From positions 21,523-85,522 of the forward strand of contig DYOA01000004.1 in the NCBI GenBank assembly GCA_020720785.1: a stretch of 64,000 nucleotides of DNA, in the 5' to 3' direction. Of the stretch, positions 651 through 38,136 are shown piece after piece; position 1 is the stretch's first letter, and each line of letters starts with the position of its first letter. The position numbers and the translations under genes are program-made. The DNA comes from Leptospira biflexa. GTDB taxonomy: Bacteria > Spirochaetota > Leptospiria > Turneriellales > DYLW01. A model generated the notes under the pieces. The model saw nothing but the letters and a program-made list of their open reading frames with translations. It searched no databases and was not told the DNA's origin.

Positions 651-2636
651 TTAGGGATTGGGGGCGGAGTGGTTTAATTTATAGATATCTTTCTGGATGA
701 ATACATCCAGAATGGTACGGTCTATGTGGTTTCTCTCTGCTTCTTCTTTCAGTATATCCAGGGATTCTTCTCTGGATATCGCCTTTTTATAAGGACGATC
801 TGTGGCGGTGAGAGCGTCGTAGATGTCCGCTATTGCCATGATTCTGGCCTGAATGGGGATGTCTTTGGCTGTTAATTGCCTTGGGTAGCCGGTCCCATCC
901 AGTTTTTCGTGATGCCCATAGGCAATTTCCGGAACATTTTCCAGATCTCTGGTCCAGGGTATCTGGATTAAAAAATTATACGAATGGGTAACATGACTTT
1001 CAATTTCCACTCTTTCTTCTTCATCCAGAGAACCTCTTCTGACACTCAGGCGGAGTGCTTCATTCTCTGTGAGCAGCTGTATGGGATTTCCGTTAATGGG
1101 AACTCTAATCCTGGATATACTCTGTAAAAAATCAAAATCTCCCTCCTCCAGTATGGTAGGTTCGTTCACAGCATAAATAGAATGAAGCATTCTTTTTATT
1201 TTCTTCTTTTCTTCCAGAAATTTATTTTTTTCTTCCTGCAAAACCTTCAGATAATTGCTCCCCTTTCTGGTTTTCAGGAGGTAAGCCTTTTTATAGAATT
1301 CCGCTTCCATCCGCTTGGCGTAATAGCGGAATTTCCATTCAATGTTATTCAGCTCATGATCATAAAGCTTTTTGGATTTGGTAAGAACTTTTTCCCGGAC
1401 ACCCACCTTCCCAAAATCATGGAGGAGGGCGGCATACCGGATCTCGCGGATCTGGTTTCTGGAAAATTCCACATCCCGGAAATGAGGTTGACTGCATTCA
1501 GAAATGGCTTTAGCTGTTTCGACTGTGTATAAAGCCACTCTGTCTGAATGACCACGGGTAGTGGGATCCCGTTGTTCAATGGCTTTTACGGATGCCCGGA
1601 CAAAACCTTCAAAGAGCTTATGAATATCATTAATCAGAAGATTATTTTCAATAGCCACAGCCGCCTGTCCGGCCAGAGCTCCAACCAGATCCAAAGATTC
1701 CCGGGAAAACGGAATTACCAGATCTGTTTTCATCTGCTCAGGAGTTAATTTTTGGTTGAGATTTCGTTTTCTGTTCACCATTTGGATGACACCGGTGATG
1801 TCGTTCCGGTGGTTTTTCATGGGGACAACCAGCATAGATTTTGTATGATAATTATGCACTTTGTCAAATTCATCGTTAAAGGAATAAGCCGTGTTTTCCG
1901 GTAGCCGATACACATTGTCAATCATCAGGATTTCTCCGGTCAGGGCCACATAACCGGCAATAGATTCATCATTGATTTCCAGAAGAAATTCATCAGCGGA
2001 GAGATTCAGGGAAGACCGCTTGAATCGAAGGCGGGTAACTTTTTTTCTATCTGTTATTTTTTCTGTGAGGTAAAGCGATCCCCCATCCGCATTTGTCAGG
2101 GAAATGGAATATTTCAGAATCAGATCAATCAGAACATCCAGATCTTTTTCCTGGGAGAGCATTTTCCCCACGTGGAGTATTTTCTGGAGTTCATCCTGTT
2201 TTTTCCCCAGCGATAGCTCCAGTTGCATGATATCGTTTTTTAACCTTTGCCGGGCTTCTATGGAAGATAGTATTTTTTCGACCGAACACCCCGGGCTGTC
2301 CAATGGGATCACCGCTTCTATAATTTCATCCGGAAAATCCGAAAGCAAGGCACTGTTCACCGTATTACCAAATAACAGCAAGGAAAATTTAAACTCTGTA
2401 TACTGAAAAACCCAGTTCAGAATTTTTTCTTTATTGGATAATAAAAAATCCATAGCTATGGCAAGGATGATATGGGTTCTTTTCGATTTGAATGGGAAAT
2501 TATTTCCCGCAATCATGGATTCAAAGTCATGAAATGAAATAATATCCCATTCATTGGTATTTAAACCAATTTGCTCCGGAGAATCGAAGGATGTTACAAT
2601 AATAGAGATTTTTTTGGATTCTGAAGTCCCCGGCAT
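651..2636 (-). CDS. HD-GYP domain cyclic-di-GMP phosphodiesterase with N-terminal receiver-like region and GAF domain
   Basis: The 661-aa ORF has an HD motif 'ALLHDFGK' and a GYP motif 'HHEKLDGTGYP'. A GAF-like block ('GGSLYLTE...IAGYVALTGE') precedes them. Confidence 0.9.
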   Translation of the reverse strand: MPGTSESKKISIIVTSFDSPEQIGLNTNEWDIISFHDFESMIAGNNFPFKSKRTHIILAIAMDFLLSNKEKILNWVFQYTEFKFSLLLFGNTVNSALLSDFPDEIIEAVIPLDSPGCSVEKILSSIEARQRLKNDIMQLELSLGKKQDELQKILHVGKMLSQEKDLDVLIDLILKYSISLTNADGGSLYLTEKITDRKKVTRLRFKRSSLNLSADEFLLEINDESIAGYVALTGEILMIDNVYRLPENTAYSFNDEFDKVHNYHTKSMLVVPMKNHRNDITGVIQMVNRKRNLNQKLTPEQMKTDLVIPFSRESLDLVGALAGQAAVAIENNLLINDIHKLFEGFVRASVKAIEQRDPTTRGHSDRVALYTVETAKAISECSQPHFRDVEFSRNQIREIRYAALLHDFGKVGVREKVLTKSKKLYDHELNNIEWKFRYYAKRMEAEFYKKAYLLKTRKGSNYLKVLQEEKNKFLEEKKKIKRMLHSIYAVNEPTILEEGDFDFLQSISRIRVPINGNPIQLLTENEALRLSVRRGSLDEEERVEIESHVTHSYNFLIQIPWTRDLENVPEIAYGHHEKLDGTGYPRQLTAKDIPIQARIMAIADIYDALTATDRPYKKAISREESLDILKEEAERNHIDRTILDVFIQKDIYKLNHSAPNP

Positions 2637-4340: not shown

Positions 4341-6569
4341 ATGAATCGCGATAAAACTTACATACAATTATGGTTATTTGGAGCATTTCTGATGCCACCC
4401 ATGGCTTGGTTGCTATTGGCATGGTTTGCGGAAATATGGAGTTTTTCAGAAATGCTGGAGATTGTTTTTTATCCTGTGATCTGGATATATGTGGCCGTTT
4501 ATCTTACCTTTGTGGCCATTGGAATTCGCTGGAAACTGGGAATTATCCAGAAATGGTTTCTGAACACATGGGAAGAAAATTTAGCACCAGCCCAGAAGCA
4601 GATATCGTCGCTGGTTATGTTTTTTTCCATCAATATAATTCTGTATATATTAATTGGCCCTAAACTGGTTACCCATCATGTGGATTTTCTGACAGAACGG
4701 GAATTCTGGCTGGCAGAAGCTACGGGGCTTCCCATTATATTCCTGTTTGCCGCACCGTTTTTTATTCAATATCTGAAGAATATTGAATTATGGACCAAAC
4801 CCATCCCATTATCCCAGAGGTATCCATTTATTTCTCTGAGAAACAAAATGGCCATGACTCTGGGGTTTACCACGGTGGGTGTCATTTTTTTAATCAGTTT
4901 GTTCACCATTTCCATAATAAACGCTCATGCAGGGGATTCCGGTGAACAGATTTTTCAGCGAATGCTGATCAAGGATATGGTCGCGTCTGTCATTTCCATT
5001 TCCATTATGTTTCTGAATTTATTTTTAATCATACGTTCAGTGAATCGACCGGTTTCCCAGGTAAACCAGATGCTGAATACCATGCTCAAAAACATCGGGG
5101 AAGGTCAGGCAGATTTAACTGTGAATATTGATGTGGAAAGCCGCAATGAGATTGGGATGTTCACCCGGAAACTCAATGAATTTGTATTAATACTGCGTAC
5201 CATGATAAATATCATCAAAACCAATGCAAACAGTCTGAGCCGGGCATCCGATAATCTGATGCAGGTATCTTCTGGCGTATCAGAATCATCGGAGAGCATG
5301 ATTACAGAAGCACAATCCGTAGCTAGTGCCACAGAAGAAATGAGTATGAATATGAATACGATGGCTTCCACCACAGAAGAAATGAGCGTCAATATTGCCT
5401 CCGTTGCCACAGCAGCCGAGCAGATGTCCCAGAATATGAGTAATATTTCCCGGACGGCGGAAGGGATGACCCGGAATATGGATTCCATTTCCAAAAATTC
5501 AGAAAACAGCTCCCAGATATCCGGTATTGCCGTAAATTACACAAAAAATGCATCCACTTCCATGGATACTCTGGGACTCGCAGCAGATGAAATTGGGGAA
5601 GTGACAAACGTTATCAAGAAAATTGCAGAAAAAACAAATTTACTGGCGTTAAACGCGACCATTGAGGCTGCCTCCGCAGGAGAAGCCGGAAAAGGATTTG
5701 GGGTGGTAGCCATTGAAATCAAGGAACTGGCCAACCAGAGTGCCGTCGCAGCGGAGGATATTGCCAAAAAAATTAACGATGTGCAGAAAAGCACCCGTAG
5801 TGCAGTGGAAATCATACGGGAGGTTTCTGAAATTGTGGGTAAATTGAACCATGCTTCCAAAAGCATCAATGATTCTGTTTTGAGCCAGACTTCCTCCATG
5901 GAAAGCATTTCCATTAATCTCGCGGAGGCAAATAAAGGAATCGGGAATATCGCCAAATCCGCTCAGGAGTTGACCTTTGGGGCCAATGAATTGTCAAAGA
6001 ATGCTGGTGAAGCAGCTCGGGGAACGGACAATGTTTCCAAGAGCATGTCATCGGTGAACGGTAAAATAAACCAGAATAAAGATATTTCCAATAAAGTTAA
6101 TTCCTCTGCCCATGAATTGTTTAATATATCTGAGGATTTAAGAAAGACAGTGGAACAGTTTATTGTGGATCAGGAGGAACAGAAACGAATCAATCCGAAT
6201 AGTTTTGAAAAAGAAGAGATAGATTTTTTTATCAGTAACCACATCAACCAGGGACGGGCATTAACCGAAATGCTGAAAACCGGGGCAGTTTTTTCCCCCA
6301 CATCTCATGAAGAATGCATTCTGGGAAAATGGTACTCCGGAGAGGGGAAAAACCTGTATGGCAATCTGGTAGAGTTTATGGGCATTGATGACCCGCATCG
6401 CAAATTGCATGAGATTGTATTACGGATTCATACTCTGTTCCAGGAAAACCGCAAAGATGAAGCAAGCCGTTTGATGTCGCACTGGGAAGAACTATCCCAC
6501 AACCTTACCCAAAGGCTGAATGAATTAAAAAAAGCAATCATGAAGCTGGGAGAAAAAAATGTTTGGTAA
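4341..6569 (+). CDS. methyl-accepting chemotaxis protein with multi-TM N-terminus, HAMP domain and C-terminal CZB zinc-binding domain
   Basis: The 742-aa ORF carries the MCP signalling hairpin '[34 protein letters not shown]'. Its C-terminus has 'H..//..[10 protein letters not shown]...HRKLH', matching the CZB His/Cys motif. Confidence 0.92.
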
Positions 6570-7914
6570 AGATAAACTGGATTATATCCGGGAAAGAATT
6601 GTCCAGAAAGCAAAAGAGGCCGGCTATGAACTGAATCCCCAGGAGAATGCGTCTCTCCACGGATCCAATCCGGAGTTGTTGTTCCAGTTATTGGAAAAAT
6701 TAATATCCCGAACAATAAAAAACCGTATTGAAGATGCCCCCATGGCATTTATTAAAAAGCTGTTCCAATTGGAGCAAGATAAGAAAATATACAATTCCTC
6801 AGATTTTGATCTTTATGCGATGAATTCTGGGGACCTTTACGAGAAAATGGAATTCCTGAATAAGATAAAAAACATTGAAGTTAAATTCTGGAAATCCCTT
6901 TCCGATCTGTTTCCATCGGCGGTGTTTGTGGTGGCACCGGACAGAAAATTCAAATATTTTAACAAACAGTTTGAATTATTGACGCAGTGGAATGCGGAAG
7001 CCATCTGGGGGGTTACAGGAGCCTATGAAATATTCTGGCCAGAGGATCCCAAAAACTGTCCGGTCTGTAAAATCGTCCGGTATTTTGATCATGAAGCCCG
7101 CAAGTCAGGAATGGAAGAAACCAAAATTAGAACAAAAGATGGTGGCATTATTCCCGTCTCTCTTTATGTCATTCCCGTTTATGAGGAAGACGGGGCTCTC
7201 ATCCATACTTTTGGGATTGTCCAGAGCCGGTTAGAGGAATTTAGAAGAAGATCGGATTACCTGAATAGGGAAATTGAGCCCATTATTGATTCCCTGAGTA
7301 AAATTGCCAATAAAAATATCACAGAAAAAATTACCATGCTCCGTGATAATGAACTCAAAAGCCTGGAGGACCCCATAAATACCATCATTGAAAATCTGCA
7401 TGGAATTCTCACATTCATCGCGGATTCTTCAGTTGAGGCCGTCCAGTCTTCCGAATCCATCAAGCACATTCTGGACGGATTCAATAAATGGCACAAAAGT
7501 ACTTTCAAGACAGAGCAGGATGAATTACTGGAAATATCCCGTAAAATGGAAACATCCACCGGACGGATTGAGCAGATTATTAATCTGATCCAGACCATTG
7601 CTGACCAGACCAACCTGCTATCATTGAATGCATCCATTGTGGCCAACAAGGCGGGTGAGCACGGGCGGGGTTTTGCTGTGGTGGCTTCCGAAGTACGGCA
7701 GTTGGCTCAAAAAAGCTATGAGGCCACCAATGAAGTGGCTGGGATTATTGATGAAATAAAAACAAATACCAGAAATATGGCGGATAAGGTAAATATTGCG
7801 AATATTGAAAGCAACCACTTGAACGATTATATCCTGAATATTTATGACCATTTTAATAAAATAGAAAGTTCTCTGATAAATCTGAATGACAAAATGAAGG
7901 AATTTACTATTTAA
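6559..7914 (+). CDS. soluble PAS-domain methyl-accepting chemotaxis protein
   Basis: The 451-aa ORF has no TM segment. It has a PAS-like region '[24 protein letters not shown]' and the MCP core '[34 protein letters not shown]'. It overlaps the upstream MCP by 11 nt. Confidence 0.9.
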
Positions 7915-7915
7915 C

Positions 7916-10900
7916 ATGATTGACTCAGACATGATATCGGATTTTGTGGAAGAATCCCGCGAACTCTTGGATTCCACGGAAGAGTTTTTTCTGGAGCTGG
8001 AAAAAAATCCGGACGCAGAAAAAATCAATACGCTTTTCCGTGCCGTGCACACCATAAAAGGGACGTCCGGCTTTCTGGGATTGGAAAACATTGGAAAGCT
8101 TTCCCATACCATGGAAAATATTATGGCAAAAATCCGGGACGGCAGTATGAAACCGGATGCTATTATCATTGATGCACTTCTCCAGGGTAATGATCTTCTG
8201 AAAGATATGATAAGGAATGTCTCTGAAAGCGACCAGAAGGACATTTCCGGAATAGTCCGGATAATGACGGATATTCTGGAAAATAAAAAGCCGGCTTCTT
8301 CTTCCACCCAGGAAAAACCAGAAAAAAAGATTCCGGAGGAAAATAAAACACTGCAGCGTGATAACCAATTTCCAAAGGAACAATCTTCCATGGATGTTCC
8401 GGAAGAACTGCTGGATGAGTTTATTTTTGAGGCCGGAAAGTATCTGACCAATCTGGAAGAGATTATTGACAACTGGGACATCCATAATGCCATCACGCAG
8501 GAATCTCTTCTCTCCGGTTTGCATGCTTTGAATGCTCTGAAGAGCAGTGCAGAATTTATTGGTTTGGGACATATATCCTTGATTGCGGAATTTGGGGAAT
8601 CCCTTCTTCAGGAGATAAACCGTGAAAATTCACTGTTTATTGCCTATAATAATTATCTTTTTATGATAAAGGATAAAATGCAGACATATCTGGACAACAT
8701 TAATGAGGCGGATCAGGAGGATGCCCGGAGTTTCATCCAGATTATCCGGGAAGCTATCAGCGGGGACAGCCAGGGGAATATTAAAAAAAATGAACATAAA
8801 GTAGCCTCTGGGGATACCGTAAATAAAAATGAAAATGCCCTGAAGTCAGAAATGGAGATAAATGACTCCATTCGTATTCATTTATCCATTGTGGACAGAC
8901 TGATGCGCCTGGCCGGAGAACTGGTATTAATACGGAACCAGCAATTAATCTCATTTCAAAATATTAACTCTGGTTCACGGGAAATTGTCCAGCGGCTGGA
9001 TGGGGTGACCTCGGAAATACAGGAAACCATAATGAAAACCCGTCTCCAGCCAATTGGGAACATAGTAAACAAATTTCCCCGTTTTATCCGGGAGTTGAAT
9101 AAGAAGTTGGAGAAAAAAATTGAGATGGAAATAACTGGTGCGGAAGTGGAGCTTGACCGTACCATCATAGAATCTCTGGCGGCTCCTCTTACCCACCTGA
9201 TTCGAAATTCCGCTGACCATGGTATTGAGCTTCCTCAGGAGAGAATTCGGGCAGGAAAAAGGGAAACCGGTCTGATCTCCATTTTTGCATACCATGAGGG
9301 CGGATTAATTCATATTAAAATCACCGATGACGGACGGGGAATGAATCTTCAGAAAATAAAGCAAAAGGCTATTGAATCCGGAATTGTCAATGAAAATGAA
9401 TTAGCAGTATGGTCAGAAAATGAAATTATCAATCTGGTTATGCGGCCTGGATTCTCCACTGCAGAGAAAGTCAGTGATGTTTCCGGAAGAGGGGTGGGTA
9501 TGGATGTGGTGAAATCTTCCATTGAACGGCTGAATGGGAGCATAGAAATCAAATCCATGGAAAACGTCGGATCCGAAATTCTGATTAAACTGCCGTTAAC
9601 TCTTGCTATCATTCCTTCCCTGATTGTTATCTCCGGAGATTACCGCTATGCGATTCCCCAGGTGAATCTGGAAGAGCTGGTAACCATTGGACAGAATGCG
9701 ACCTCCCGAGTGGAAACCACACAGGATCAGGAAGTATTCCGGTTACGGGATTTTCTTTTGCCTGTTGTCCGCCTGGATGAATTGCTGGGTTCCCCGGAAC
9801 CGATGAATCGTGAGACGAAGATGGATATTCTGATGAAATATGCCCTGCACCGGGAAAAGGAAACCCGGAATCTGGCTGTGCTGGTGGCCGGGAATAAAAA
9901 GTACGGAATGATCATAGACCAGGTACTGGGAACGGAAGAGATTGTTGTAAAACCCATGCATAACGCATTAAAACATTTGAAAGTATATTCCGGTGCCACT
10001 ATCTTAGGGGACGGGAAGATAGCCCTGATTCTGGATGCAGAAGGCATTGGGAATCATTACGGTGTGAACTACAATGTGAAGATGAAGGAAAAGGAATACA
10101 TCAATGAAAATTCCATTAATGAATCTGTCCTCATATTCCGTTATGGGGAAAAAGAACAATTTGGTTTATCCCTGCATCTGATTTCCCGTATAAAAGAAAT
10201 TTCAGCCCATGACATCCAGAAAGTGGGAAATGATGAATATGTCCATTTTGATAATAAAAGCAATAAAATAATTCGGCTGGATTCCTATCTGCCCATAGAT
10301 CCCATTGTTGCCACAGAATATTATTATATTATTTTATTTAAACACATAAATAAACCCGCCGGTATAATAATTTCAGAGCTGATTGATATCCGGGACATTG
10401 CTATCATTCTGGATGAAGTGTCTTATAAAAAGGACGGGGTTTTGGGGACTTCCATTATAAATGACAAAATTACCATTTTTCCGGATATCTACAGGGTTAT
10501 GGAACTGGCCGAACCGGAATGGTTTTCCCAAAAAGAAAAGAAATATTTATACGCGGATAAAAAAGCACTGGTTGTGGATGATTCGTCCATTTTCCGTTCC
10601 ATGATATCCAAATACCTGCGGGAAGAGAAATTCCTTGTTACCACAGCCACCGATGGAAAAGACGCCCTTCAGAAATGGAAAACCGGGAAATTTGATTTAA
10701 TCATCAGCGACCTGGAAATGCCTGTAATGGATGGTTTTGGGTGGATCGCGGAAGTGAGAAACCTGAAAGATGGAAAAGATATTCCCGCTATCGCTCTGTC
10801 CTCTCTGAACAAAGAGGATATTATAGAAAAAGCAAAATCGGCCGGTTTTGACAGATATGAAATCAAAATTGAACGTGAGCATTTTATACAGACCGTATAC

Positions 10901-10927
10901 TCCGTAATGGAAGAATTCTATGGTTAA
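7916..10927 (+). CDS. cheA: chemotaxis histidine kinase CheA fused to a C-terminal receiver (two Hpt-like domains, HATPase, CheW-like, REC)
   Basis: The 1003-aa ORF has Hpt motif 'RAVHTIKGTSG' and a second degenerate Hpt 'GLHALNALKSS'. The kinase core has 'HLIRNSADHGIE' and 'DDGRGM', followed by a CheW-like domain. The terminal REC has 'ALVVDDS...LIISDLEMPVMDG'. Confidence 0.95.
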   Translation: MIDSDMISDFVEESRELLDSTEEFFLELEKNPDAEKINTLFRAVHTIKGTSGFLGLENIGKLSHTMENIMAKIRDGSMKPDAIIIDALLQGNDLLKDMIRNVSESDQKDISGIVRIMTDILENKKPASSSTQEKPEKKIPEENKTLQRDNQFPKEQSSMDVPEELLDEFIFEAGKYLTNLEEIIDNWDIHNAITQESLLSGLHALNALKSSAEFIGLGHISLIAEFGESLLQEINRENSLFIAYNNYLFMIKDKMQTYLDNINEADQEDARSFIQIIREAISGDSQGNIKKNEHKVASGDTVNKNENALKSEMEINDSIRIHLSIVDRLMRLAGELVLIRNQQLISFQNINSGSREIVQRLDGVTSEIQETIMKTRLQPIGNIVNKFPRFIRELNKKLEKKIEMEITGAEVELDRTIIESLAAPLTHLIRNSADHGIELPQERIRAGKRETGLISIFAYHEGGLIHIKITDDGRGMNLQKIKQKAIESGIVNENELAVWSENEIINLVMRPGFSTAEKVSDVSGRGVGMDVVKSSIERLNGSIEIKSMENVGSEILIKLPLTLAIIPSLIVISGDYRYAIPQVNLEELVTIGQNATSRVETTQDQEVFRLRDFLLPVVRLDELLGSPEPMNRETKMDILMKYALHREKETRNLAVLVAGNKKYGMIIDQVLGTEEIVVKPMHNALKHLKVYSGATILGDGKIALILDAEGIGNHYGVNYNVKMKEKEYINENSINESVLIFRYGEKEQFGLSLHLISRIKEISAHDIQKVGNDEYVHFDNKSNKIIRLDSYLPIDPIVATEYYYIILFKHINKPAGIIISELIDIRDIAIILDEVSYKKDGVLGTSIINDKITIFPDIYRVMELAEPEWFSQKEKKYLYADKKALVVDDSSIFRSMISKYLREEKFLVTTATDGKDALQKWKTGKFDLIISDLEMPVMDGFGWIAEVRNLKDGKDIPAIALSSLNKEDIIEKAKSAGFDRYEIKIEREHFIQTVYSVMEEFYG

Positions 10928-11411
10928 TGCGAAGAACCAGTATATCTCCTTCTGGATTGGTGGAAGATTCTTTGGATGCACTATTCTGGATGTAAAAGAA
11001 ATCAATTCAGAGTTTCACATTACTCCCATTTTTCATGCACCGGAAAGTATGCTGGGTTATGTTAATTTGCGAGGTCAGATTTGTCTGATCATAAATCTGA
11101 ATCCAGTTCTGGGAATTCGCGATGTTTCCATTGATGAGAAAAGAAAAGAAAATGGCAGGCTGATTATTTTCAAGGAATCCACGGGAGAATCCTTTGGCAT
11201 TTTTGTGGATAAAGTGGGGGATGTGCTTTCTGTGGAACCGGAAGATATTGAGGAATTTTCTGCTTTCCGACAGGATAGCAACGAAGAAAATCTGAAAAAC
11301 TCCAAAGTCATTGGCGGCATTACTAGGTTGAAAAATGATTTAATGGTTATTATCAACGCACGGGAAATAATTGAAGACGGGAGAGGAAATGAAAGCCATA
11401 ATAGTGGATGA
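10920..11411 (+). CDS. cheW: chemotaxis coupling protein CheW
   Basis: The 163-aa ORF has the typical CheW length and the pattern 'YISFWIGGRFFG...LGYVNLRGQI'. It overlaps cheA by 8 nt. Confidence 0.9.
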   Translation: MVNAKNQYISFWIGGRFFGCTILDVKEINSEFHITPIFHAPESMLGYVNLRGQICLIINLNPVLGIRDVSIDEKRKENGRLIIFKESTGESFGIFVDKVGDVLSVEPEDIEEFSAFRQDSNEENLKNSKVIGGITRLKNDLMVIINAREIIEDGRGNESHNSG

Positions 11412-12432
11412 TTCCATCATTTTTAGAAAGCAGATTCTGGAAATATTCTATTCCATAGCGGATATTGAAGTAATCCAGTCCTATTGGAACGGCAAAGGAC
11501 TGGTGGAATACCTAACAAGAGATGAGACAATTATCCCGGATCTGGTTACTCTGGATGTGGAGATGCCGGAAATGGACGGAATTGAGACCATGAAAGCAAT
11601 ATCCTCATTGCGGAAAATTAATCCTGCCTTGAAGAAAATGAAAGTACTAATGGTCAGCTCCATTACCAGAGATGGAGCCCAGGCTACCATTGCGGCCCTC
11701 CAGAACGGAGCATTTGATTTTATCCTCAAACCATCCAATGTACCGGACCCAAAGAAAGAACTCCGGATTTTACTGGAAGAAAAAATAAAATTAATGCGGG
11801 AAGAATCAACATCATCTTCCGAAATAAAAAAACGACAGAAAAATCCTGATAAATTAAGAAAACCGGAGGTGGTGGCCATTGGGGTGTCCACGGGGGGGCC
11901 CGCTGCATTAAAAAAACTTCTACCGGAATTATGTGAAAAAATGGATTTACCAGTTCTTGTGGTACAGCACATGCCACTGGAATTCACGGAATCTCTGGCT
12001 CAGAGTCTGGATAAATATACCCGGCATAACGTGTTGGTGGGCCAGCACGGCATGAAGATAGAAAAAAATCATGTATATATCGCTCCGGGCGGATCTCACA
12101 TGCTGGCCAGGAAAGGGACGAATTCCAAGAGTATTGTTATCAACGAAAATCCACCGGAAAACGGTTGCCGTCCTTCTGTGGATCCGTTATTCCGTTCCGT
12201 TGCCGAATCCTATGAGGGGAAATCGGTGGCTGTGGTGCTTACGGGTATGGGGTCGGATGGTTCCCGTTCCCTGGGGACACTTGCCCGGGCAGGTTCGGTT
12301 ATTATTGCACAGGACCAGGAAACCAGTGTGGTCTGGGGAATGCCCGGCAATGCAGTCTCCACAGGATTTGTGGACCGGGTACTTCCATTGGAAAAAATTT
12401 CCGAACAAATTATGGAATACATCAATGAATGA
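11389..12432 (+). CDS. cheB: chemotaxis response regulator protein-glutamate methylesterase CheB
   Basis: It has REC 'MKAIIVDDS...LDVEMPEMDG' plus esterase motifs 'GVSTGGPAAL' and 'GMGSDG'. The track ORF starts at a TTG at 11371. I prefer the ATG at 11389, which is preceded by GGGAGAGG. Confidence 0.9.
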   Translation: MKAIIVDDSIIFRKQILEIFYSIADIEVIQSYWNGKGLVEYLTRDETIIPDLVTLDVEMPEMDGIETMKAISSLRKINPALKKMKVLMVSSITRDGAQATIAALQNGAFDFILKPSNVPDPKKELRILLEEKIKLMREESTSSSEIKKRQKNPDKLRKPEVVAIGVSTGGPAALKKLLPELCEKMDLPVLVVQHMPLEFTESLAQSLDKYTRHNVLVGQHGMKIEKNHVYIAPGGSHMLARKGTNSKSIVINENPPENGCRPSVDPLFRSVAESYEGKSVAVVLTGMGSDGSRSLGTLARAGSVIIAQDQETSVVWGMPGNAVSTGFVDRVLPLEKISEQIMEYINE

Positions 12433-13249
12433 CCAAACAGTAACGGAATTGACTTTCTATCGTATCAGAGACCGAATCCATGAAATCAGCGGTATATTTC
12501 TGGGATATGAGAAAGAATATCTGTTGCGGCAGCGGTTATCCGGCATCATCCGGGATAAAAATCTGGAAAATTTTGAAGCCCTTGCCGATTACCTGGAAAA
12601 AAATAATCCAAACGGATGGAAAAACGATGTTATTTCCGCTATCACCGTGAATGAAACGTCCTTTTTCCGGGATTCCCATCCGTTTATGAACCTGCAAAAA
12701 CTTGTACAGAATGAATTCCCGGGCAGGGCATTGCGTATATTGAGCATTGGATGTGCCAATGGACAGGAGCCGGTGAGCATATCCATCGCATTGCAGGAAT
12801 GCAATACCAATTGCGGGATTTCCTATCGCATTTATGGAGTGGATATTGATATAAAAGTCATCGAAGCTGCACGGAAAAACATATACAGGAAGGAAGAAAT
12901 TCTCCGGGGAGTACCACCTTCTTTCCGGGAAAAATATTTTGTGCAGAATCCGGGGGGAGATTATTCCGCATCCGATGGAATTTTCTATTGGATACAGTAT
13001 CATACGGAAAATATCGTCCATGGATTGGAACATTCCATTGAGAAAGAATATGATATTGTTTTTCTGCGGAATGTATTGATTTACTTTAAACCGGAGACCA
13101 GGGAAAGAGTATTGCAGTATGTGCATTCTATAATGGCTAAAGGCTCTTTTCTGATACTGGGAGCTTCAGAAAATATATTTGGGTATAATCATTTGTTCGC
13201 CAGCGTAATTTACGATAAAAGCATTTTTTACAGGAAATTATATGAGTAA
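12425..13249 (+). CDS. cheR: chemotaxis protein methyltransferase CheR
   Basis: The sequence 'ETSFFRDSHPF', 'LSIGCANGQEP' and 'FLRNVLIYF' matches CheR. The track ORF (from 12071) reads 118 out-of-frame codons through cheB. The plausible start is the ATG at 12425 within ATGAATGA, which overlaps the cheB stop. Confidence 0.9.
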   Translation: MNDQTVTELTFYRIRDRIHEISGIFLGYEKEYLLRQRLSGIIRDKNLENFEALADYLEKNNPNGWKNDVISAITVNETSFFRDSHPFMNLQKLVQNEFPGRALRILSIGCANGQEPVSISIALQECNTNCGISYRIYGVDIDIKVIEAARKNIYRKEEILRGVPPSFREKYFVQNPGGDYSASDGIFYWIQYHTENIVHGLEHSIEKEYDIVFLRNVLIYFKPETRERVLQYVHSIMAKGSFLILGASENIFGYNHLFASVIYDKSIFYRKLYE

Positions 13250-15185
13250 AGTTCATTTTATCAGTCAGGAAGCTCTGTTTTCCAAAATGATATCGGTCTA
13301 TTTTTCCAGACGAGGCCTGGAATTTTCCAGTTCCCCATCCATCGATTCTTCCATGCCCGCCAGCGATTACCTGATGATTGACCTTCCGTATACCGAACCG
13401 GATCCGGGCGTAAAAAGTGAGCTACGCCGGATGAAGGAGAAGGGAATGGTAATCCTGTTTCTGGAGGATAAATACTCGCCGGAAAAAAGCCAGTTTTTTG
13501 CGGAATGCGGTGTTGTCAAAGAAAGAGATTTAAAGGTTCTTGATGATATTATCCTTATGATACAGGAAAATTCCACCCAACCCGCCCCTGCCGAACAGGA
13601 ACCGATGACCGAACCCGGTCCCGTGGAAAATGTGTCCCCATCTCCGGAAATAGTTTCTCCGCCGGAAACGGAGGAAAATCCGGAGCAGGATTCTCTCTCT
13701 CTCCAGGAAACCGATACCCCCCCAGCTTCTTTCTCCAGCCTGGGGATGGAGGCATCGGAAAATGTGGATATAAAAATCCTTATTGCCGATGATGCCAATG
13801 CAATACGCAACTTTGTGAAAAAAATTCTGGTTGCACACGGCTATGAAGTGGAAGCCTTTGAAAATGGACGGTTGCTGGTGGATTATATAGAGAACCATGG
13901 GCGGGGGGACTTGATTCTTCTGGATAACCAGATGCCAGTCATGGACGGAATAGAGACATTAAAATACTTAAAGAATAATAGAGAATTCCGGGAAATTCCC
14001 GTCCTTTTTCTTTCTGCCATTAAAGAGAAAGAAACCGTCGTTAAAGCCTTGGAAATGGGAGCAGATGACTACATGGAAAAACCGTTTCATAATAATGAAT
14101 TTTTGGCCCGCATCAAAGTACACGTCCGCATTGAGACATTGAAACGAAGCATTCTGGAAAAAAACCGCCTGATTGAATTGGAGAAAGAAAAAGCTGATAA
14201 ACTTCTGTTGAATACCCTGCCCAAAAAAATCGTGGAAGATTTAAAAAGGGAAGGGCGTACCTATCCGGAAACCTTTGATAACGTAACGGTCTATTTTTCC
14301 GATATAGCCGGCTTCACTGTCCAGTCCTCACGCCTTGAGCCTGCTTATCTTATCAATGAACTGAATGATATTTTTACCAATTTTGATAACATAATGGAGA
14401 AAAATTCCTGCGAACGGATAAAAACCATCGGAGATGCATATATGGCCGTCTGCGGTATGCCCATCCCCAACCAAAATCATGCGGAAAATATGCTCACTTC
14501 CTCCATTGAAATTATTGATTATTTGGAAAAGCGCAATCTGACTTCACAGGTCCAGTGGAAAATCCGGATTGGTATTCACACAGGAAGAGTGACTGGCGGG
14601 GTGGTGGGCATTAAAAAATATATTTACGATGTTTTTGGGGATACCATCAATACGGCATCCCGGATGGAATCCAATTCCGAACCCATGAGGATTAATATAT
14701 CCCCCACAACCTATGAACTTCTGAAAGATACGTTCCCTTTCATGGAAAGAGAAGCCAGAGAAGTAAAGGGCAAGGGTCTTATGAAAATGTATTTTTACGG
14801 GGAGCAACCGGATATGGAGATGACACTTATACGGGAAACCCCGGCAGAAACAACGCCGAAAGAAATCATTCCATCCAGCGGTCGTATCCGGGAGCCGGAA
14901 ATTATTCCTCCGATAAAGGCCATTTTATCGGAAGAAGATTATGGGATTTTATTCGCATATTATAAATCCAAAGAATTGGATAAAGCAATCGAAATTATAG
15001 AAGCCCATCCAGCAGAAGCTCAGGAGATGAAGACGCTGAAATTGTATGGCTGGATCTATTACGCATTAAAAGAATATTCTCTGGCTGCGGCAATCTGGGA
15101 AAGAGCTCTGGAAATAAATCCGGAGCAGCCAAAGCTGAAAAAAAACCTGGATACCCTGAAAGAATTTCTCCGGAAAATCGGATGA
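13242..15185 (+). CDS. pseudo-receiver / receiver / class III adenylate cyclase / TPR fusion protein
   Basis: The 647-aa ORF has REC 'ILIADDA...LILLDNQMPVMDG...DYMEKPF'. The cyclase core has 'VYFSDIAGFT', 'ERIKTIGDAYM' and 'YDVFGDTINTASRME'. A TPR-like C-terminus follows. It overlaps cheR by 8 nt. Confidence 0.9.
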   Translation: MSKVHFISQEALFSKMISVYFSRRGLEFSSSPSIDSSMPASDYLMIDLPYTEPDPGVKSELRRMKEKGMVILFLEDKYSPEKSQFFAECGVVKERDLKVLDDIILMIQENSTQPAPAEQEPMTEPGPVENVSPSPEIVSPPETEENPEQDSLSLQETDTPPASFSSLGMEASENVDIKILIADDANAIRNFVKKILVAHGYEVEAFENGRLLVDYIENHGRGDLILLDNQMPVMDGIETLKYLKNNREFREIPVLFLSAIKEKETVVKALEMGADDYMEKPFHNNEFLARIKVHVRIETLKRSILEKNRLIELEKEKADKLLLNTLPKKIVEDLKREGRTYPETFDNVTVYFSDIAGFTVQSSRLEPAYLINELNDIFTNFDNIMEKNSCERIKTIGDAYMAVCGMPIPNQNHAENMLTSSIEIIDYLEKRNLTSQVQWKIRIGIHTGRVTGGVVGIKKYIYDVFGDTINTASRMESNSEPMRINISPTTYELLKDTFPFMEREAREVKGKGLMKMYFYGEQPDMEMTLIRETPAETTPKEIIPSSGRIREPEIIPPIKAILSEEDYGILFAYYKSKELDKAIEIIEAHPAEAQEMKTLKLYGWIYYALKEYSLAAAIWERALEINPEQPKLKKNLDTLKEFLRKIG

Positions 15186-15210
15186 TCTTTCATTAATATT
15201 TTTTGACAGC

Positions 15211-15239
15211 TTGACAAACCAAAAAAATCTGGTTAGGGT
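15211..15239 (+). promoter_or_regulatory. sigma-70-like promoter candidate for argG (TTGACA-N17-TAGGGT)
   Basis: TTGACA at 15211-15216 (a second copy lies at 15203-15208) is followed by a 17-nt spacer and TAGGGT at 15234-15239. The argG ATG lies 7 nt further on, so the transcript would have a very short leader or none. Confidence 0.3.
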
Positions 15240-15246
15240 AACCATT

Positions 15247-16464
15247 ATGAAAAATGTTAAAAAAATTGTTTTATCATACTCCGGCGGTCTGGACACATCT
15301 GTCATACTACACTGGCTTAAAAAAGAATATCAGGCGGAGGTGATAGCTTTCTGTGCAGACATTGGCCAGAAGGAAGAGATGGATGGACTGGAAGAAAAAG
15401 CCCTGAAAACCGGTGCATCCAAACTGTATCTTCTGGACCTGAAAGAAGAATTTGCACGGGATTATGTATATCCCATCATCCGTGCATCCGCTGTATATGA
15501 AATGCGGTATTTACTGGGAACTTCCATCGCCCGTCCTTTGATTGCCCAGAAGCAGATTGAGATTGTCCAGAAAGAAGGGGCAGACGCTGTTTCCCACGGG
15601 GCCACCGGGAAAGGAAATGACCAGGTACGGTTTGAATTTACCTTCCATGCTCTTATGCCGGGTATCCATGTTATAGTGCCCTGGCGCACGTGGAATTTCA
15701 CCGGGAGAGAAGATTTGATTGCGTATGCCCACAAGGAAAACATACCGGTAAAGGCATCCGTGCAAAAACCGTATTCCATTGACCAGAATTTACTGCACAC
15801 ATCCTATGAGGGCGGCATTCTGGAGGATCCCTATCTGGAACCGGATGAATCCATGTTTCTCACCACAAAATCATTGAAAGAAGCAAAAAGTGAACCGGAA
15901 TACATAGAAATAGAATTTGAAAGAGGAAACGCCGTAAAATTGAACGGCCAGAGTAAAAGCCCTGCGGACATGATCTTAACTTTGAATAAAATTGGGGGGG
16001 AACATGGTATTGGCCGGGTGGATATTGTGGAAAACCGTCTGGTGGGTATCAAATCCAGAGGCGTGTATGAAACTCCCGGAGGAACCATCCTGCATATTGC
16101 CCACAGGGATCTGGAAGCCATTACCTTGGAAAAAAATCTACAGCATTTAAAAGATGAAATTTCCATGCGATATGCCCGCCTGGTTTACAACGGCGAATGG
16201 TTCAGCCCGGAAAGAGAGGCTCTCCAGAAATTTGTGGATGATACCCAGAGAACCGTTAATGGAACAGTGAGAATCCAGTTGTTCAAGGGAAACGCAAGAG
16301 TGGTGGGAAGAAAATCTCCCAATTCGTTGTACCTTACCAAGCTGGCCTCGTTTGAAGATGACGTAAATGAGAAAATTTATGACCAGTCAGATGCAGAGGG
16401 GTTTATCCGTCTGTTCAGTTTGCCTGTGAAATACGGATATACCCAGTACAAAAAATTTCAATAA
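15247..16464 (+). CDS. argG: argininosuccinate synthase
   Basis: The ORF has 'KIVLSYSGGLDTSV' and 'GATGKGNDQVRFE'. The track ORF begins at a TTG at 15211. The ATG at 15247 gives the canonical N-terminus. Confidence 0.93.
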   Translation: MKNVKKIVLSYSGGLDTSVILHWLKKEYQAEVIAFCADIGQKEEMDGLEEKALKTGASKLYLLDLKEEFARDYVYPIIRASAVYEMRYLLGTSIARPLIAQKQIEIVQKEGADAVSHGATGKGNDQVRFEFTFHALMPGIHVIVPWRTWNFTGREDLIAYAHKENIPVKASVQKPYSIDQNLLHTSYEGGILEDPYLEPDESMFLTTKSLKEAKSEPEYIEIEFERGNAVKLNGQSKSPADMILTLNKIGGEHGIGRVDIVENRLVGIKSRGVYETPGGTILHIAHRDLEAITLEKNLQHLKDEISMRYARLVYNGEWFSPEREALQKFVDDTQRTVNGTVRIQLFKGNARVVGRKSPNSLYLTKLASFEDDVNEKIYDQSDAEGFIRLFSLPVKYGYTQYKKFQ

Positions 16465-16465
16465 A

Positions 16466-16942
16466 ATGGCCTTAAAAAACCAGGAATTCCTGTCTCCCAT
16501 GGGATGGTACCGGATCGAGTACCCGCCCACCTGGGAGGTGGAAGTCATTGAGGGAATCCCCTCCTTTTTCGATGGGCTTTTTTCCAAGGGCGGGGTTTTT
16601 CAGATATTTGCTGTCCGCATTCCGGAGATAGGGAAAGCCAATCCGGAAATATTAAAAAAAGCTCCTTATCTGAATGGGGAAAATGTTGTGGAAAAAATGG
16701 AAGCATTTCTGGAACACCAAGGATCGGGAGCATATGTGGAATCCATCCAGAGTTACACAAAGGATAATTCTCTGGTGTCCGTTTGTGAATGGAAAAAAGA
16801 GGATACTTTTTATTTTGGTTCCATGATGGAAAGCTACCAGAAATTTATTCTTGCTCTATATAACTCCCCTTATGTCCCGGATGCGGAAGAAGCAGGGATC
16901 ATTGGTGGGATGGTTCGTTCGCTGGAAATTTATCCGGATTAA
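16466..16942 (+). CDS. hypothetical protein
   Basis: The 158-aa ORF starts 1 nt after the argG stop. It has ordinary protein-like composition and no recognisable motif. Confidence 0.55.
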   Translation: MALKNQEFLSPMGWYRIEYPPTWEVEVIEGIPSFFDGLFSKGGVFQIFAVRIPEIGKANPEILKKAPYLNGENVVEKMEAFLEHQGSGAYVESIQSYTKDNSLVSVCEWKKEDTFYFGSMMESYQKFILALYNSPYVPDAEEAGIIGGMVRSLEIYPD

Positions 16943-29731: not shown

Positions 29732-30370
29732 ATGAAACCATTTGAAAAAATCACATCCAATATTTGCCCACTGGACATGCCCAATATTGACACGGACCAG
29801 ATCATACCCAAGCAGTTTCTGAAGCGCATTGAGAGATCCGGTTTTGGCCAGTTCCTGTTCTATGACTGGAGATTCCGGAATGGAAATACGGAAAATACGG
29901 AATTCAATATGAACAAACCGGAGTATAAGGGAGCACAGATTCTTTTAACGGAAGATAATTTTGGATGCGGTTCCTCCCGTGAGCACGCACCCTGGGCATT
30001 GGAGGATTACGGCATTAAGGTTATTCTCTCCCCTTCCTTTGCGGATATATTTCATAATAACTGTTTCCAGAATGGAATTCTCCCCATCCGTCTGGATAAG
30101 GAAATCATCCTGAATCTTTTCAAGGCTGCCTTTGCCCATCCCATGGAAAAATATACCGTGGATCTGGAGAAAAATGAGATTCTCGTGGAAGGGGAAAATT
30201 CCCGGAAGATACTGGGGAATTCCATTTCCTTTTCGTTGGATCCGGGCAAAAAAGAAAAACTGCTCAAAGGTCTGGATGATATTGGATGGACCTTACAGTT
30301 CCTGTCAGAAATTGAAAAACATGAGAAGAGCAGGGTGACGTTTAGCGAAAGCCATCATCAGCGAACGTAA
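29732..30370 (+). CDS. leuD: 3-isopropylmalate dehydratase small subunit
   Basis: The 212-aa ORF has 'NIDTDQIIPKQFL' and 'NFGCGSSREHAPWAL' and follows leuC after 3 nt. Confidence 0.93.
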   Translation: MKPFEKITSNICPLDMPNIDTDQIIPKQFLKRIERSGFGQFLFYDWRFRNGNTENTEFNMNKPEYKGAQILLTEDNFGCGSSREHAPWALEDYGIKVILSPSFADIFHNNCFQNGILPIRLDKEIILNLFKAAFAHPMEKYTVDLEKNEILVEGENSRKILGNSISFSLDPGKKEKLLKGLDDIGWTLQFLSEIEKHEKSRVTFSESHHQRT

Positions 30371-31353
30371 GAATCGCCGTCTTTACGCAGAACAATCCGG
30401 TTTTCCGATTCCAGGTCGTGGATGGTATCCAAGACGGTATTTCTTGCAGTTTCCACTTCAGAGATGGGAATTCTGTCCAGACGGTCCATTTCATCGATGA
30501 TATCCGCAGATCGATTAATGGAAATACTGGAGAGAATATGGCGACGCAGCGTTTCTCCGGAACCCTTCAACGCTTTTGCCCATATTTCATAGGATGACAG
30601 TCTCTCCATCAATACGCGGACTTCTTTCTGCTCCAGATTGATAATATCCGCAAAAGTAAACAATTGGGAACGGATTCTTTCCGCCATGGAATCATCTTCT
30701 GTGCGAATGCTTTCCAGAATGGTTTCCTCTTTAGCGGAGTCCACATATTTCAGAATTTCCGCCAGCCGGTTTTCTCCATCAATTTCATAAAATTTATCTT
30801 CGGAAAAGGAGTCCAGCTTTTTCTTCAGAGACTGGTACACCGCATACAGGACTTCCGGAAGAACATCCGTGGACTTGGCAATACGGTAGGACACTTTCGC
30901 GGCATACTCCCTGTCAAATTCCTTGATGACGGCTGCCGCGAATGGGGGTTTTAACTGGGATAAAACGATTGCAGCCGTCTGGGGGAGCTCAGAGGAAAGA
31001 ATATGGGCAAGGTCTTCTGGAGGATAATCCGATAACTTTTTAAAGTAATCATGGACTTTGGACTTTTCTATCTTATCTATGTATTTCTGTGATTTTTCTT
31101 TTCCCAGGGTTTTTTCCAGCCAGGCAATGGCGGTGTCTTTACCGCCGGTGCTTTCCATCTGGGCTTTTCTCAGGGTATCCCGGAATTCCTTTAAAAGAGT
31201 TTCTTTTTCCTCGGCGTTTATGACAGAAATCTCAGCGATTTCCACTGCCAGCTTTTCAATGTATTTTTCATCCAGATGCTTGAGAATATTGGAAGCGTTT
31301 TCTTTCCCCAGGGCAAGTAGTAGTTTTGCTGCCTTCTGGCTGCCCTTTTCCAT
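30358..31353 (-). CDS. fliG: flagellar motor switch protein FliG (isolated paralogue)
   Basis: The 331-aa ORF has 'KAAKLLLALGKENASNILKHL', an EHPQ-like 'ELPQTAAIVLSQL', an MFxF-like 'QLFTFADI', and a C-terminal torque-helix region. Confidence 0.9.
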   Translation of the reverse strand: MEKGSQKAAKLLLALGKENASNILKHLDEKYIEKLAVEIAEISVINAEEKETLLKEFRDTLRKAQMESTGGKDTAIAWLEKTLGKEKSQKYIDKIEKSKVHDYFKKLSDYPPEDLAHILSSELPQTAAIVLSQLKPPFAAAVIKEFDREYAAKVSYRIAKSTDVLPEVLYAVYQSLKKKLDSFSEDKFYEIDGENRLAEILKYVDSAKEETILESIRTEDDSMAERIRSQLFTFADIINLEQKEVRVLMERLSSYEIWAKALKGSGETLRRHILSSISINRSADIIDEMDRLDRIPISEVETARNTVLDTIHDLESENRIVLRKDGDSYVR

Positions 31354-34046: not shown

Positions 34047-34054
34047 ATACAATG

Positions 34055-36403: not shown

Positions 36404-36480
36404 AAAAAAACTTGCCGTTGTGCATAAAAACCCGGATTGGTATTTGCGTGACTTAAAAATTAACCTTGGAGAAAAAATTT

Positions 36481-38136
36481 ATGAAATCAGTTACAAAAGC
36501 ATTGTTTGTTCTACTGTTTTCCGTATCTGCTACGTTTGCCTTTGCTCCGGCAGACTATGCAGATAAGGACACAATTTTTTATGCAGAAATTGACAGCTAT
36601 TCCTCGTTGCTGAAAAAGACGCAGACATTTTACCTGAACCTCAGGAACCCCGCCGGAAAGAATGAATTGGAAATGGTCAAAACCGAGTTCAAACAGAATA
36701 TGGGAATTGACATCCTGGATGAAAAAGCCGTTGCCGCGTTTGGGGTGGATGTGACCCAACCCATCGCCGTGGGGGTTACTATGGCAGATCCCCAGATGCA
36801 GCAGGGAAAAGTGCACATTTGGATTCCTTCCGGTAATTCAGCTAGACTATACCAGAATGTTCTGAAAATGCTGGCAGCAAAAGACGCATCGGTGAGGCAA
36901 TACGATGAAGGTGCACAGGCTTCCTTCACAGAATTGAAATCCAATGAGCTCATAGAAATTGGCCAGGGCGAGGTTTTTATTGCCAGAGGAAGGGATTTTA
37001 TCTATATCACCACCGATCAGACAGCGGCAAACAATCCGTCCAAAGCAGGCGATTCCCTTGCCGGAACCGAGAAATACAAACTTCTGAAAGATCATTACGC
37101 TAAATCAGATAAAACGGGGATTTATCTCATTGACTATTCTCTGGTTACCACGGCGGCTTTGAGCCAGTATGCCCTGATGTACGGAGATGCGGGGAATGAA
37201 ATTGAAAAAGAATATCTGGAGGAAATTAAGGAAAATTTAATTTCCATTGGAGGAAAACTGGATATCCGTCCCAAAAGCTTTAACATCCAGTTTACTTATT
37301 TTTATAAAGAGGGCTATTTACAGGATATGACTAAAATGATGCCCAAACTGCTAAAAAATACTTCCAATCCAACCTCAATAGATTTTTTCAATGGAAATCC
37401 CATAGCATATTTTTCCCTCAAAATGAACCTTCCGGAGTTCTATAACGTTATGAAGGGAATGCAGCCCACCATCGCAACAAGCATCGCAGAAATGAACCAG
37501 GGATTTTCCGAGGATACTGGTCTGGACATTGAAACCGATGTGATCAACGGCTTCACCGGACGGGGATCGATGCTTCTGGTATCTCTGCCACCAGAAAAAC
37601 GCCTTCAGGATTTTAACGCCTGGAATGGGGCAATGGCAGTGGGAATCACACCAGGATCCGGGGATAAATTCAACAAAATAATCCTGGCCCTCCAGAAAAA
37701 AAATGATAACCCGAATATGACCATTAAATCCCAGAAGCTGGATAATGATGTTACTCTTTGGGCTTTTGTTACGAAAATGAATCCGGAATCAGAAGCCACA
37801 GAAGAAGCGTCACCCAAAAAATCGGCAAAGAAAAACACTGTGTATGTTTATGTTAAATCGGATGAAATAGTCATCGCTCCCAAAATGAACGCATGGATTA
37901 CCAAACCGGCAAGCAAAATTCATTTAATAAAAAAACTGGTAAAGGGAAATGAAAGCAATACTCCCGGAATTTTTTATGTGGATGTAAGCTCCGTTTCAAA
38001 ATACATGAAGACCACCTCTTATGGAATGATGATGGGCATGTATCTTGCTTATATCCAGAACGTGAAAGATGTTTACATGATATCATCCACAGAGGAAAAC
38101 ATCACAGTTTCTGATTTCATGATCAGACTTAAATGA
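36481..38136 (+). CDS. hypothetical secreted protein (signal peptide)
   Basis: The N-terminus is 'MKSVTKALFVLLFSVSATFAFAP'. GGAG lies 9 nt upstream of the ATG at 36481. The track ORF starts at a TTG at 36466. This is the first gene of a five-gene coupled operon. Confidence 0.65.
   Translation: MKSVTKALFVLLFSVSATFAFAPADYADKDTIFYAEIDSYSSLLKKTQTFYLNLRNPAGKNELEMVKTEFKQNMGIDILDEKAVAAFGVDVTQPIAVGVTMADPQMQQGKVHIWIPSGNSARLYQNVLKMLAAKDASVRQYDEGAQASFTELKSNELIEIGQGEVFIARGRDFIYITTDQTAANNPSKAGDSLAGTEKYKLLKDHYAKSDKTGIYLIDYSLVTTAALSQYALMYGDAGNEIEKEYLEEIKENLISIGGKLDIRPKSFNIQFTYFYKEGYLQDMTKMMPKLLKNTSNPTSIDFFNGNPIAYFSLKMNLPEFYNVMKGMQPTIATSIAEMNQGFSEDTGLDIETDVINGFTGRGSMLLVSLPPEKRLQDFNAWNGAMAVGITPGSGDKFNKIILALQKKNDNPNMTIKSQKLDNDVTLWAFVTKMNPESEATEEASPKKSAKKNTVYVYVKSDEIVIAPKMNAWITKPASKIHLIKKLVKGNESNTPGIFYVDVSSVSKYMKTTSYGMMMGMYLAYIQNVKDVYMISSTEENITVSDFMIRLK

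Follow-up and report, generated by a model that had tools for sequence, protein, structure and literature searches.

Which output does a chemosensory gene cluster serve when it encodes no stand-alone CheY and ends in a receiver protein that carries its own enzyme? This question is raised by an operon in a 64,000-nucleotide stretch of Leptospira biflexa DNA (assembly GCA_020720785.1, contig DYOA01000004.1, positions 21,523 to 85,522), here called the window. Seven genes on its plus strand lead from two methyl-accepting chemotaxis proteins (MCPs) to a 647-aa receiver-cyclase protein. A first-pass annotation of the sequence had proposed that they connect chemoreceptors to cyclic AMP (cAMP), and our analysis supports this interpretation as a well-founded candidate, with most of the computational checks suggested there turning out in its favour. 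The reading we favour, with a probability of roughly 0.68, is that the operon encodes a non-motor, Wsp-like chemosensory pathway with cAMP output, in which CheA would phosphorylate the receiver of the cyclase protein directly.

The open reading frames (ORFs) of the window were checked, and domains were called with Pfam at its gathering thresholds, with NCBIfam as a second library. The boundaries of the seven genes agreed with the first-pass annotation, and the junctions were exactly those it had listed (-11, +1, -8, -23, -8 and -8 nt, in order from the first MCP gene to the cyclase gene). All Che components and the REC and cyclase domains exceeded the Pfam thresholds; only the TPR models did not. 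The gene order is MCP(HAMP-CZB), MCP(PAS), CheA, CheW, CheB, CheR and the receiver-cyclase, all on the plus strand. MCP1 (4341..6569, 742 aa) scored 98 bits for MCPsignal, 35 bits for CZB and 25.5 bits for HAMP, and MCP2 (6559..7914, 451 aa) scored 31 bits for PAS and 108 bits for MCPsignal. CheA (7916..10927, 1003 aa) comprises a first Hpt domain with His45, a degenerate second Hpt domain, the dimerisation and HATPase domains, two CheW domains and a C-terminal REC. The coupling protein CheW (10920..11411, 163 aa, Pfam CheW 71 bits) is encoded with an 8-nt overlap with cheA. CheB (11389..12432, 347 aa) has an N-terminal REC and scored 210 bits for CheB_methylest and 63 bits for Response_reg; its NCBIfam score was 346 bits against a cut-off of 293. 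The cheB start is the ATG at 11389, the longest ORF beginning at a TTG at 11371. CheR (12425..13249, 274 aa) scored 156 bits for CheR and 38.5 bits for CheR_N, and its stop overlaps by 8 nt the start of the receiver-cyclase gene (13242..15185), the last of the operon. The locus thus co-encodes an MCP, CheA and CheW core with the adaptation enzymes CheB and CheR. The seven genes form a tightly coupled operon, probably with translational coupling between them.

The last gene had been described as a receiver, a class III cyclase and a TPR domain. The first two parts stood, with 94 bits for Response_reg and 195 bits for Guanylate_cyc; the TPR part held in a weaker form, and an N-terminal pseudo-receiver had been missed. 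The protein was modelled with AlphaFold2 (mean predicted local distance difference test, pLDDT, 76), and conservation was read from an alignment of 19 family members with 44-83% identity to the window protein. Residues 1-111 (13242..13574) are the pseudo-receiver. They gave no Pfam hit and are modelled in (beta-alpha)5 order with a pLDDT of 80-90. The acidic DD pair is lacking, D47 alone is nearly invariant, and the domain occurs throughout the 19-member family, though poorly conserved. A linker predicted to be disordered (residues 113-174, pLDDT below 50) leads to the canonical REC at residues 177-296 (13770..14129, model pLDDT 79-91). Here D183, D184, D228, S258 and K280 are invariant in all 19 members. 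By sequence and model, this domain has the full receiver signature, that is the acidic pair, the phospho-acceptor Asp, the Thr/Ser and the Lys on a (beta-alpha)5 fold. E. coli CheY also finds its best window match in this domain (33% identity, E 9e-16).

The receiver is followed by a transducer-like helix and linker (14130..14261, residues 297-340) with the motif LLLNTLPKKIVEDLK. The model predicts a continuous helix over residues 284-325 and a further helix over residues 328-337. The LLLNTLPKKIVEDLK helix aligns with the signalling helices that precede the catalytic domain in AC9 and in guanylate cyclases of the receptor and soluble types. Relatives carry faint HNOBA matches. Because the pre-catalytic helix aligns with signalling helices of class IIIa enzymes, a receiver-driven shift in helix register or dimer geometry is, by analogy with class IIIa/b cyclases, the likely mechanism of control of the cyclase.

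The catalytic domain (14262..14801, residues 341-520) is a class III cyclase of IIIa-like type. As previously annotated, it has the metal-binding, transition-state and ATP-specifying residues, and these motifs align with the catalytic residues of mammalian AC9 C1/C2. Invariant in the family are the metal ligands D354 and D398, the ATP-specifying pair K394 (IKTIGD) and D463 (YDVFGD), the phosphate-binding R442 and the transition-state residues N470 and R474. Guanylate cyclases carry Glu/Cys at the positions of the Lys/Asp pair of adenylate cyclases. The residues are those of a class III adenylate cyclase, and cAMP is the product predicted from them. The closest solved relatives are of class IIIa (AC9, AC8, AC5, GC-A, receptor and soluble guanylate cyclases, and mycobacterial Cya/Rv1625c), and structure comparisons of the cyclase protein revealed no solved chain that pairs a receiver with a class III cyclase. 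The C-terminal tail (14919..15182, residues 560-647) can be called TPR-like from weak Pfam matches (17-24 bits, below gathering cut-offs of 23.5-28 bits) together with a confident helical-repeat model (helices at pLDDT 90-97). It was found in only 5 of the 19 family members and is lineage-specific.

The receivers of the window were then counted in a tblastn search that took E. coli CheY and the receivers encoded in the window as queries. Only three REC-coding regions were detected in the 64 kb, those of CheA, CheB and the cyclase; thus there is no stand-alone CheY in the window. Pfam scans of the other large ORFs of the window gave no CheZ, CheC, CheX, CheD or CheV. The earlier statement that the locus has neither a single-domain CheY nor a CheZ/C/X/D phosphatase is therefore correct for the window, and no CheY or auxiliary phosphatase was found in any of five complete orthologous operons, the window's included. 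Within the 64 kb, the output side fits a system for alternative cellular functions (ACF): no CheY, no CheC/D/V/X/Z, and an output regulator with a non-motor effector. The same was found at the loci L001, L005, L007 and L095.

About twenty clustered relatives of the cyclase protein share its arrangement of pseudo-receiver, receiver and cyclase. Ten orthologous loci were inspected (the window, L001, L004, L005, L007, L009, L091, L092, L094 and L095), and in every one of them the cyclase gene directly follows cheR. The full order MCP(CZB)-MCP(PAS)-CheA-CheW-CheB-CheR-cyclase recurs in L001, where CheA is 92% identical to that of the window, and in L005, L007 and L095, where it is 42-47% identical. 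Whether the receiver-cyclase gene is kept at the operon end in related genomes was a point on which the first-pass annotation had made its claim depend. It is kept, with protein identities of only 31-62% and different flanks in these relatives. The annotation would have been contradicted by a flagellar class combined with missing synteny; since the synteny is strong, this combination does not arise. The genes around the operon in L005, L007 and L095 bear no relation to those that flank it in the window, which implies that the operon moves and persists as a unit. As an outgroup control, GTDB genomes and metagenomes were scanned, and the matches listed were mostly unrelated cyclases or receivers. 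Among the matches listed, the nearest receiver-cyclases outside the clade (L012-L015, L021, L099 and L102) had no che genes in the available upstream sequence. Thus, the che linkage is specific to the clade.

A different effector was found behind the same type of kinase in two sister operons, L096 and L097. They share the CheA architecture with 43-48% identity and differ in their output, which is a SpoIIE/PP2C effector and so probably partner switching and not a cyclic nucleotide; their receptors include dCache and Fe-hydrogenase-like domains. In L096 (4907-16382), CheA is 43% identical, the gene order is the same, with CheW-CheB-CheR kept, and the last gene encodes a REC-SpoIIE/PP2C protein. 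The receiver of this protein starts at residue 143 and, over 141 aa, shares 46% identity and 77% similarity with the cyclase REC; it is preceded by an N-terminal extension similar to that of the cyclase protein. The L096 receptors have other sensor domains than those of the window. In L097 (Desulfonema magnum CP061800.1, 6914-16986), the cluster is CheA-CheW-MCP-CheB-CheR, and a REC-PP2C gene and a fusion of STAS and anti-sigma-kinase domains (HATPase_c_2+STAS) lie directly upstream of cheA. This suggests chemosensory input to a partner-switching (anti-sigma) module. The same CheA chassis and the same receiver type thus occur with different effectors, which argues that the receiver is the output port of the pathway. 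We regard this effector swap as the strongest computational evidence for such a role of the cyclase receiver. Together with the synteny, it points to direct phosphotransfer from CheA to the cyclase protein. As an observation on its own, the sensor of one L096 MCP is formed by Fer4 and Fe-hydrogenase large-subunit (Fe_hyd_lg_C) domains, which is unusual for the input of a chemoreceptor.

The route that phosphate could take was read from CheA itself. Pfam confirmed the gene set that had been listed (two MCPs, CheA with a fused REC, CheW, CheB and CheR) and added two CheA domains that had been overlooked, a second Hpt at 26.3 bits and a second CheW at 29.1 bits, each exceeding its cut-off. No P2/CheY-binding domain was found in CheA by Pfam, and its C-terminal REC keeps the DD...D...S...K residues. 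In a comparison of CheA orthologues, His45 of Hpt1 was invariant. The canonical His of Hpt2 was absent from three of four: the window and L007 have Asn and L005 has Ser, and L001 alone has His. A four-step phosphorelay (Hpt1 to CheA-REC to Hpt2 to cyclase-REC) was considered and rejected as the main route, because Hpt2 has no phosphorylatable His in most orthologues; direct transfer from Hpt1 to the receiver is favoured instead. The second Hpt domain occupies CheA residues ~160-260 (window 8390-8700) and can be likened to the degenerate Hpt domains of ChpA. A search with CheA as query led to a large clade of CheA-REC proteins of about 1000 aa; its named members come from Desulfobacterales, Nitrospinota, Planctomycetota, Verrucomicrobiota, Lentisphaerota, Thermodesulfobacterium and others.

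In the pathway we propose, MCP1, a membrane receptor with a CZB domain of zinc/oxidant type, and the soluble PAS receptor MCP2 would control autophosphorylation of CheA on His45 of Hpt1, acting via CheW and the two CheW-like domains of CheA. Phosphorylated CheA would pass its phosphate to three receivers. Its own C-terminal REC may serve as a sink or regulator, CheB would give methylation-based adaptation together with CheR, and D228 of the cyclase-protein receiver would be the output. The phosphorylated receiver would reposition the long transducer helix and so change the activity of a homodimeric class IIIa-type adenylate cyclase, and receptor occupancy would be read out as an adapting change in cAMP. 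The phosphotransfer is an inference, and so are its activating or inhibiting effect, the ligands and the targets that cAMP would act on; by analogy with other CZB and PAS sensors, zinc, oxidant or redox stimuli would be the signals for the MCPs.

The two receptors are of different build. MCP1 begins with a polytopic hydrophobic region without Pfam match, followed by HAMP, a long signalling domain and the C-terminal CZB. Its hairpin-tip Glu is residue 448, and about 23 heptads lie between HAMP and the tip. By length, the signalling domain is of about 44-48 heptads (44-48H). An exact heptad class for MCP1 was dropped, as alignments to 40H and 44H structures conflict. The zinc ligands of the CZB domain are intact (H, HEEC(ILGKW) and HxxxH). 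MCP1 orthologues stand at the equivalent operon position in L001, L005, L007 and L095, and the 3His/1Cys motif is intact in the window and in three of these four orthologues. In L007 (L007:114-2348), the CZB domain lacks the Cys and the HxxxH zinc ligands, which are kept in the other four loci. MCP2 is soluble and has a short signalling domain. Its arm past the hairpin tip spans exactly 84 aa (12 heptads), the length of the 24H class, and this arm length is the same in the window, L001 and L095. The signalling domains of MCP1 and MCP2 differ greatly in length within one operon, whose CheA adds two CheW domains beside CheW. F5 systems have a different (38H) receptor class.

Several points weigh against a direct CheA-to-cyclase pathway with cAMP output. 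The duplicated CheW domain of CheA is reported as a near-exclusive mark of the flagellar F5 class (Berry et al., PMC10782961). The genome is that of a flagellated organism, as indicated by fliG, fliD and a FapA-family gene in the window, and CheA could also serve a CheY encoded elsewhere. NCBIfam scores put the cyclase REC nearer to PhoB/OmpR-type receivers than to CheY. In one lineage only cheB, cheR and the cyclase gene are clustered (L009:7971-11548, L092:2700-6300 and L093:1331-4931), with no cheA, cheW or MCP gene nearby, and the L009 trio has a REC-PAS-HisKA-HATPase-REC hybrid histidine kinase upstream. No cAMP effector or phosphodiesterase is conserved beside the operon. Finally, the whole argument is built from gene context and residues.

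The first two of these points would fit a flagellar (F-class, possibly F5-like) system with its CheY elsewhere, in which the receiver-cyclase is a side branch or a modulator of motility. The combination of two CheW domains with a C-terminal REC is indeed the architecture of 99% of F5 CheAs, and REC-bearing CheAs occur in the F3, F5, ACF and type IV pili (Tfp) classes; multi-Hpt CheAs, however, are to 93% ACF or Tfp (Berry et al., PMC10782961). The architecture of the window CheA thus gives conflicting signals, since two Hpt domains, the missing P2 and the REC suggest ACF/Tfp and the duplicated CheW suggests F5. An F5 cluster would have a CheY besides the duplicated CheW and the REC, and the latter two are present in CheA while CheY is in no orthologous operon. 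CheZ, CheC, CheX, CheD and CheV are likewise missing from the five complete operons and from the 64-kb window, and no operon adjoins flagellar genes. Both L096, ending in REC-PP2C, and L097, flanked by REC-PP2C and the STAS/anti-sigma-kinase fusion, have non-motor outputs. On this balance, we consider a flagellar system unlikely.

Less probable still is that another histidine kinase phosphorylates the cyclase receiver, and that the gene merely rides along in the operon or is tied to CheB and CheR rather than to CheA. The three trios speak for this, as does the hybrid kinase of L009 and the fact that cheR-cyclase adjacency is more strictly kept than cheA-cyclase adjacency. However, the hybrid kinase is not kept in the sister locus L092, which has ligA upstream of its trio instead. 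Five complete operons keep CheA together with the cyclase, with genes that overlap or nearly abut, and this type of receiver stays with the CheA clade through the exchange of the effector. The trios without cheA mean that the kinase partner is not always adjacent. That the receiver-cyclase is mainly a phosphate sink or scaffold, docked via pseudo-receiver and TPR and with a constitutive, vestigial or non-cAMP cyclase, is very improbable: extra non-catalytic modules, the sink-like REC that CheA already has and a substrate specificity predicted from two residues only can be cited for it, but the catalytic residues are invariant family-wide, which implies that catalysis is under selection, the Lys/Asp pair is characteristic of ATP-specific enzymes, and the TPR is absent in 14 of 19 members and so not essential.

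The non-motor pathway from chemoreceptors to cAMP was compared with known systems. In its logic it resembles Wsp of Pseudomonas (WspA-F and WspR), which shares an MCP, a CheA-REC hybrid kinase, CheW-type couplers, CheB and CheR, and the lack of a CheY. Both operons close with a gene for a receiver joined to an enzyme of nucleotide-cyclase fold, so that receptor input leads to a second messenger. In contrast to Wsp, an ACF-class system whose output is a GGDEF diguanylate cyclase, the window operon ends in a class III adenylate cyclase. Wsp has one receptor, whereas the window operon has two (CZB and PAS), a CheA with two Hpt and two CheW domains, and an output protein with an N-terminal pseudo-receiver. 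The operon is not a member of the Wsp family, because its output domain is Guanylate_cyc and no GGDEF is present by Pfam. PleD (REC-REC'-GGDEF) likewise has a phosphorylatable and a degenerate receiver before a dimerising cyclase-fold domain. In PleD, however, the order of true and pseudo-receiver is reversed, the catalytic domain of the window protein is a class III cyclase, and PleD is fed by DivJ and PleC and not by CheA. Comparison of PleD with the whole model by Foldseek covered at least 520 columns with TM-scores of 0.18-0.29 and a root-mean-square deviation of about 22 Å, a like domain order and not a matching fold.

A chemosensory-type pathway that changes cAMP exists in Pil-Chp of P. 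aeruginosa, which acts on CyaB. Chp is of the Tfp class, has a ChpA with many Hpt domains and the CheY-like proteins PilG and PilH, and acts indirectly on the membrane cyclase CyaB, which has a MASE2 domain and no receiver and is not encoded in the operon. To our knowledge this is the only array link to cAMP, and it is indirect and mechanistically unclear. In contrast, the window cyclase carries its own REC, its gene is probably translationally coupled to cheR, and the operon has no pil genes or single-domain receivers. The first-pass annotation had been aware of no characterised example of such wiring. This holds for the open-access full-text literature searched, in which we found no characterised pathway from Che proteins to a REC-adenylate cyclase. 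The sole precedent is one table row of 2012, which already links a REC-cyclase to a che cluster: for 'delta proteobacterium NaphS2' it lists 'REC - CHD mononucleotidyl cyclase', protein D8FCI6 (Munoz-Martinez et al. 2012, PMC3447774, Table S2). That study is a survey of CheR-TPR fusions, and it counts 'mononucleotidyl cyclase', with one case, among the receiver-fused domains in CheR-TPR che clusters (PMC3447774). NaphS2 and the window thus share a receiver-class III cyclase inside a che cluster, and the NaphS2 cluster falls under alternative cellular functions. In NaphS2 it is CheR that carries the TPR, whereas in the window family the cyclase does, in some members only; the NaphS2 protein is known from this one row, which comes with no analysis of residues, synteny or function.

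Chemosensory arrays combine high gain with a wide dynamic range and adaptation, and no other bacterial sensors are as sophisticated. Few of their non-motility outputs are understood, and Wsp with its output to cyclic di-GMP is the paradigm. If the proposed pathway is true, it would be a clean, testable circuit from chemoreceptors to cAMP, and cAMP would join the second messengers under array control. With the REC-PP2C sisters, the output receiver would then be a modular port. We are inclined to extend this, with the odds slightly in favour, to a general picture in which methylation-adapting arrays of uncultivated bacteria write directly into cAMP, so that oxidant, zinc or redox signals become transient, adapting pulses, and in which an exchange of the effector behind the conserved output receiver connects the chassis to other outputs, PP2C partner switching among them. 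More speculatively, the trios of cheB, cheR and cyclase gene suggest that CheB and CheR may be functionally tied to the cyclase protein itself. Specialists would hardly be surprised, given that a range of outputs fused to receivers is on record for non-motor Che systems. What the locus offers is a proposed direct, adaptation-equipped wiring from chemoreceptors to cAMP that is conserved, readily testable and, in the literature searched, uncharacterised, with the effector swap and the pseudo-receiver as additional handles on the mechanism. Its components, soluble or easy to truncate, could become parts for synthetic sensing.

Downstream of the cyclase gene, after a short gap and on the same strand, lies argG (15186-16464), whose start is probably near 15250 and not at the TTG at 15211. 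This adjacency was also found in L001 and L004 and not in L005, L007 and L095. The interval between the two genes has no convincing terminator, and the counts from promoter and terminator scans were barely above those of shuffles. The adjacency of argG is probably lineage-specific read-through and not a component of the system. After argG follows a 158-aa ORF (16466-16942, plus strand) without Pfam match, which is kept in L001 and L004.

Two further genes of the window encode proteins that are possible candidates for cyclic-nucleotide effectors and are not conserved beside the operon in more distant relatives. One is a CRP-like cNMP-binding protein of 211 aa (57434-58069, minus strand), which was counted in favour of a cAMP output, but nothing links it to the operon. 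The other is a GAF protein with an HD-GYP-type (HD_5) domain (651-2636, minus strand), 1.7 kb upstream of the operon and on the opposite strand.

The flagellar genes are an isolated fliG (30358-31353, minus strand), fliD (34055-36166, minus strand) and the FapA-family gene (40969-42954, plus strand). They stand scattered among genes for GAF-GAF-SpoIIE (31728-34052, minus strand) and SpoIIE-TPR (38133-40118, plus strand) phosphatases, and the window is rich in PP2C-type signalling genes. Among 5.8 billion proteins, Mfd (53109-56522, minus strand) had an identical copy and one relative with 58% identity; all others, from mixed phyla, were at most 48% identical (about 40% over most of the length). 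The host lineage seems to be deep and poorly sampled. Further ORFs without Pfam match are found at 36466-38136 (plus strand, 556 aa), 61246-63294 (minus strand, 682 aa) and 47950-49137 (minus strand, 395 aa).

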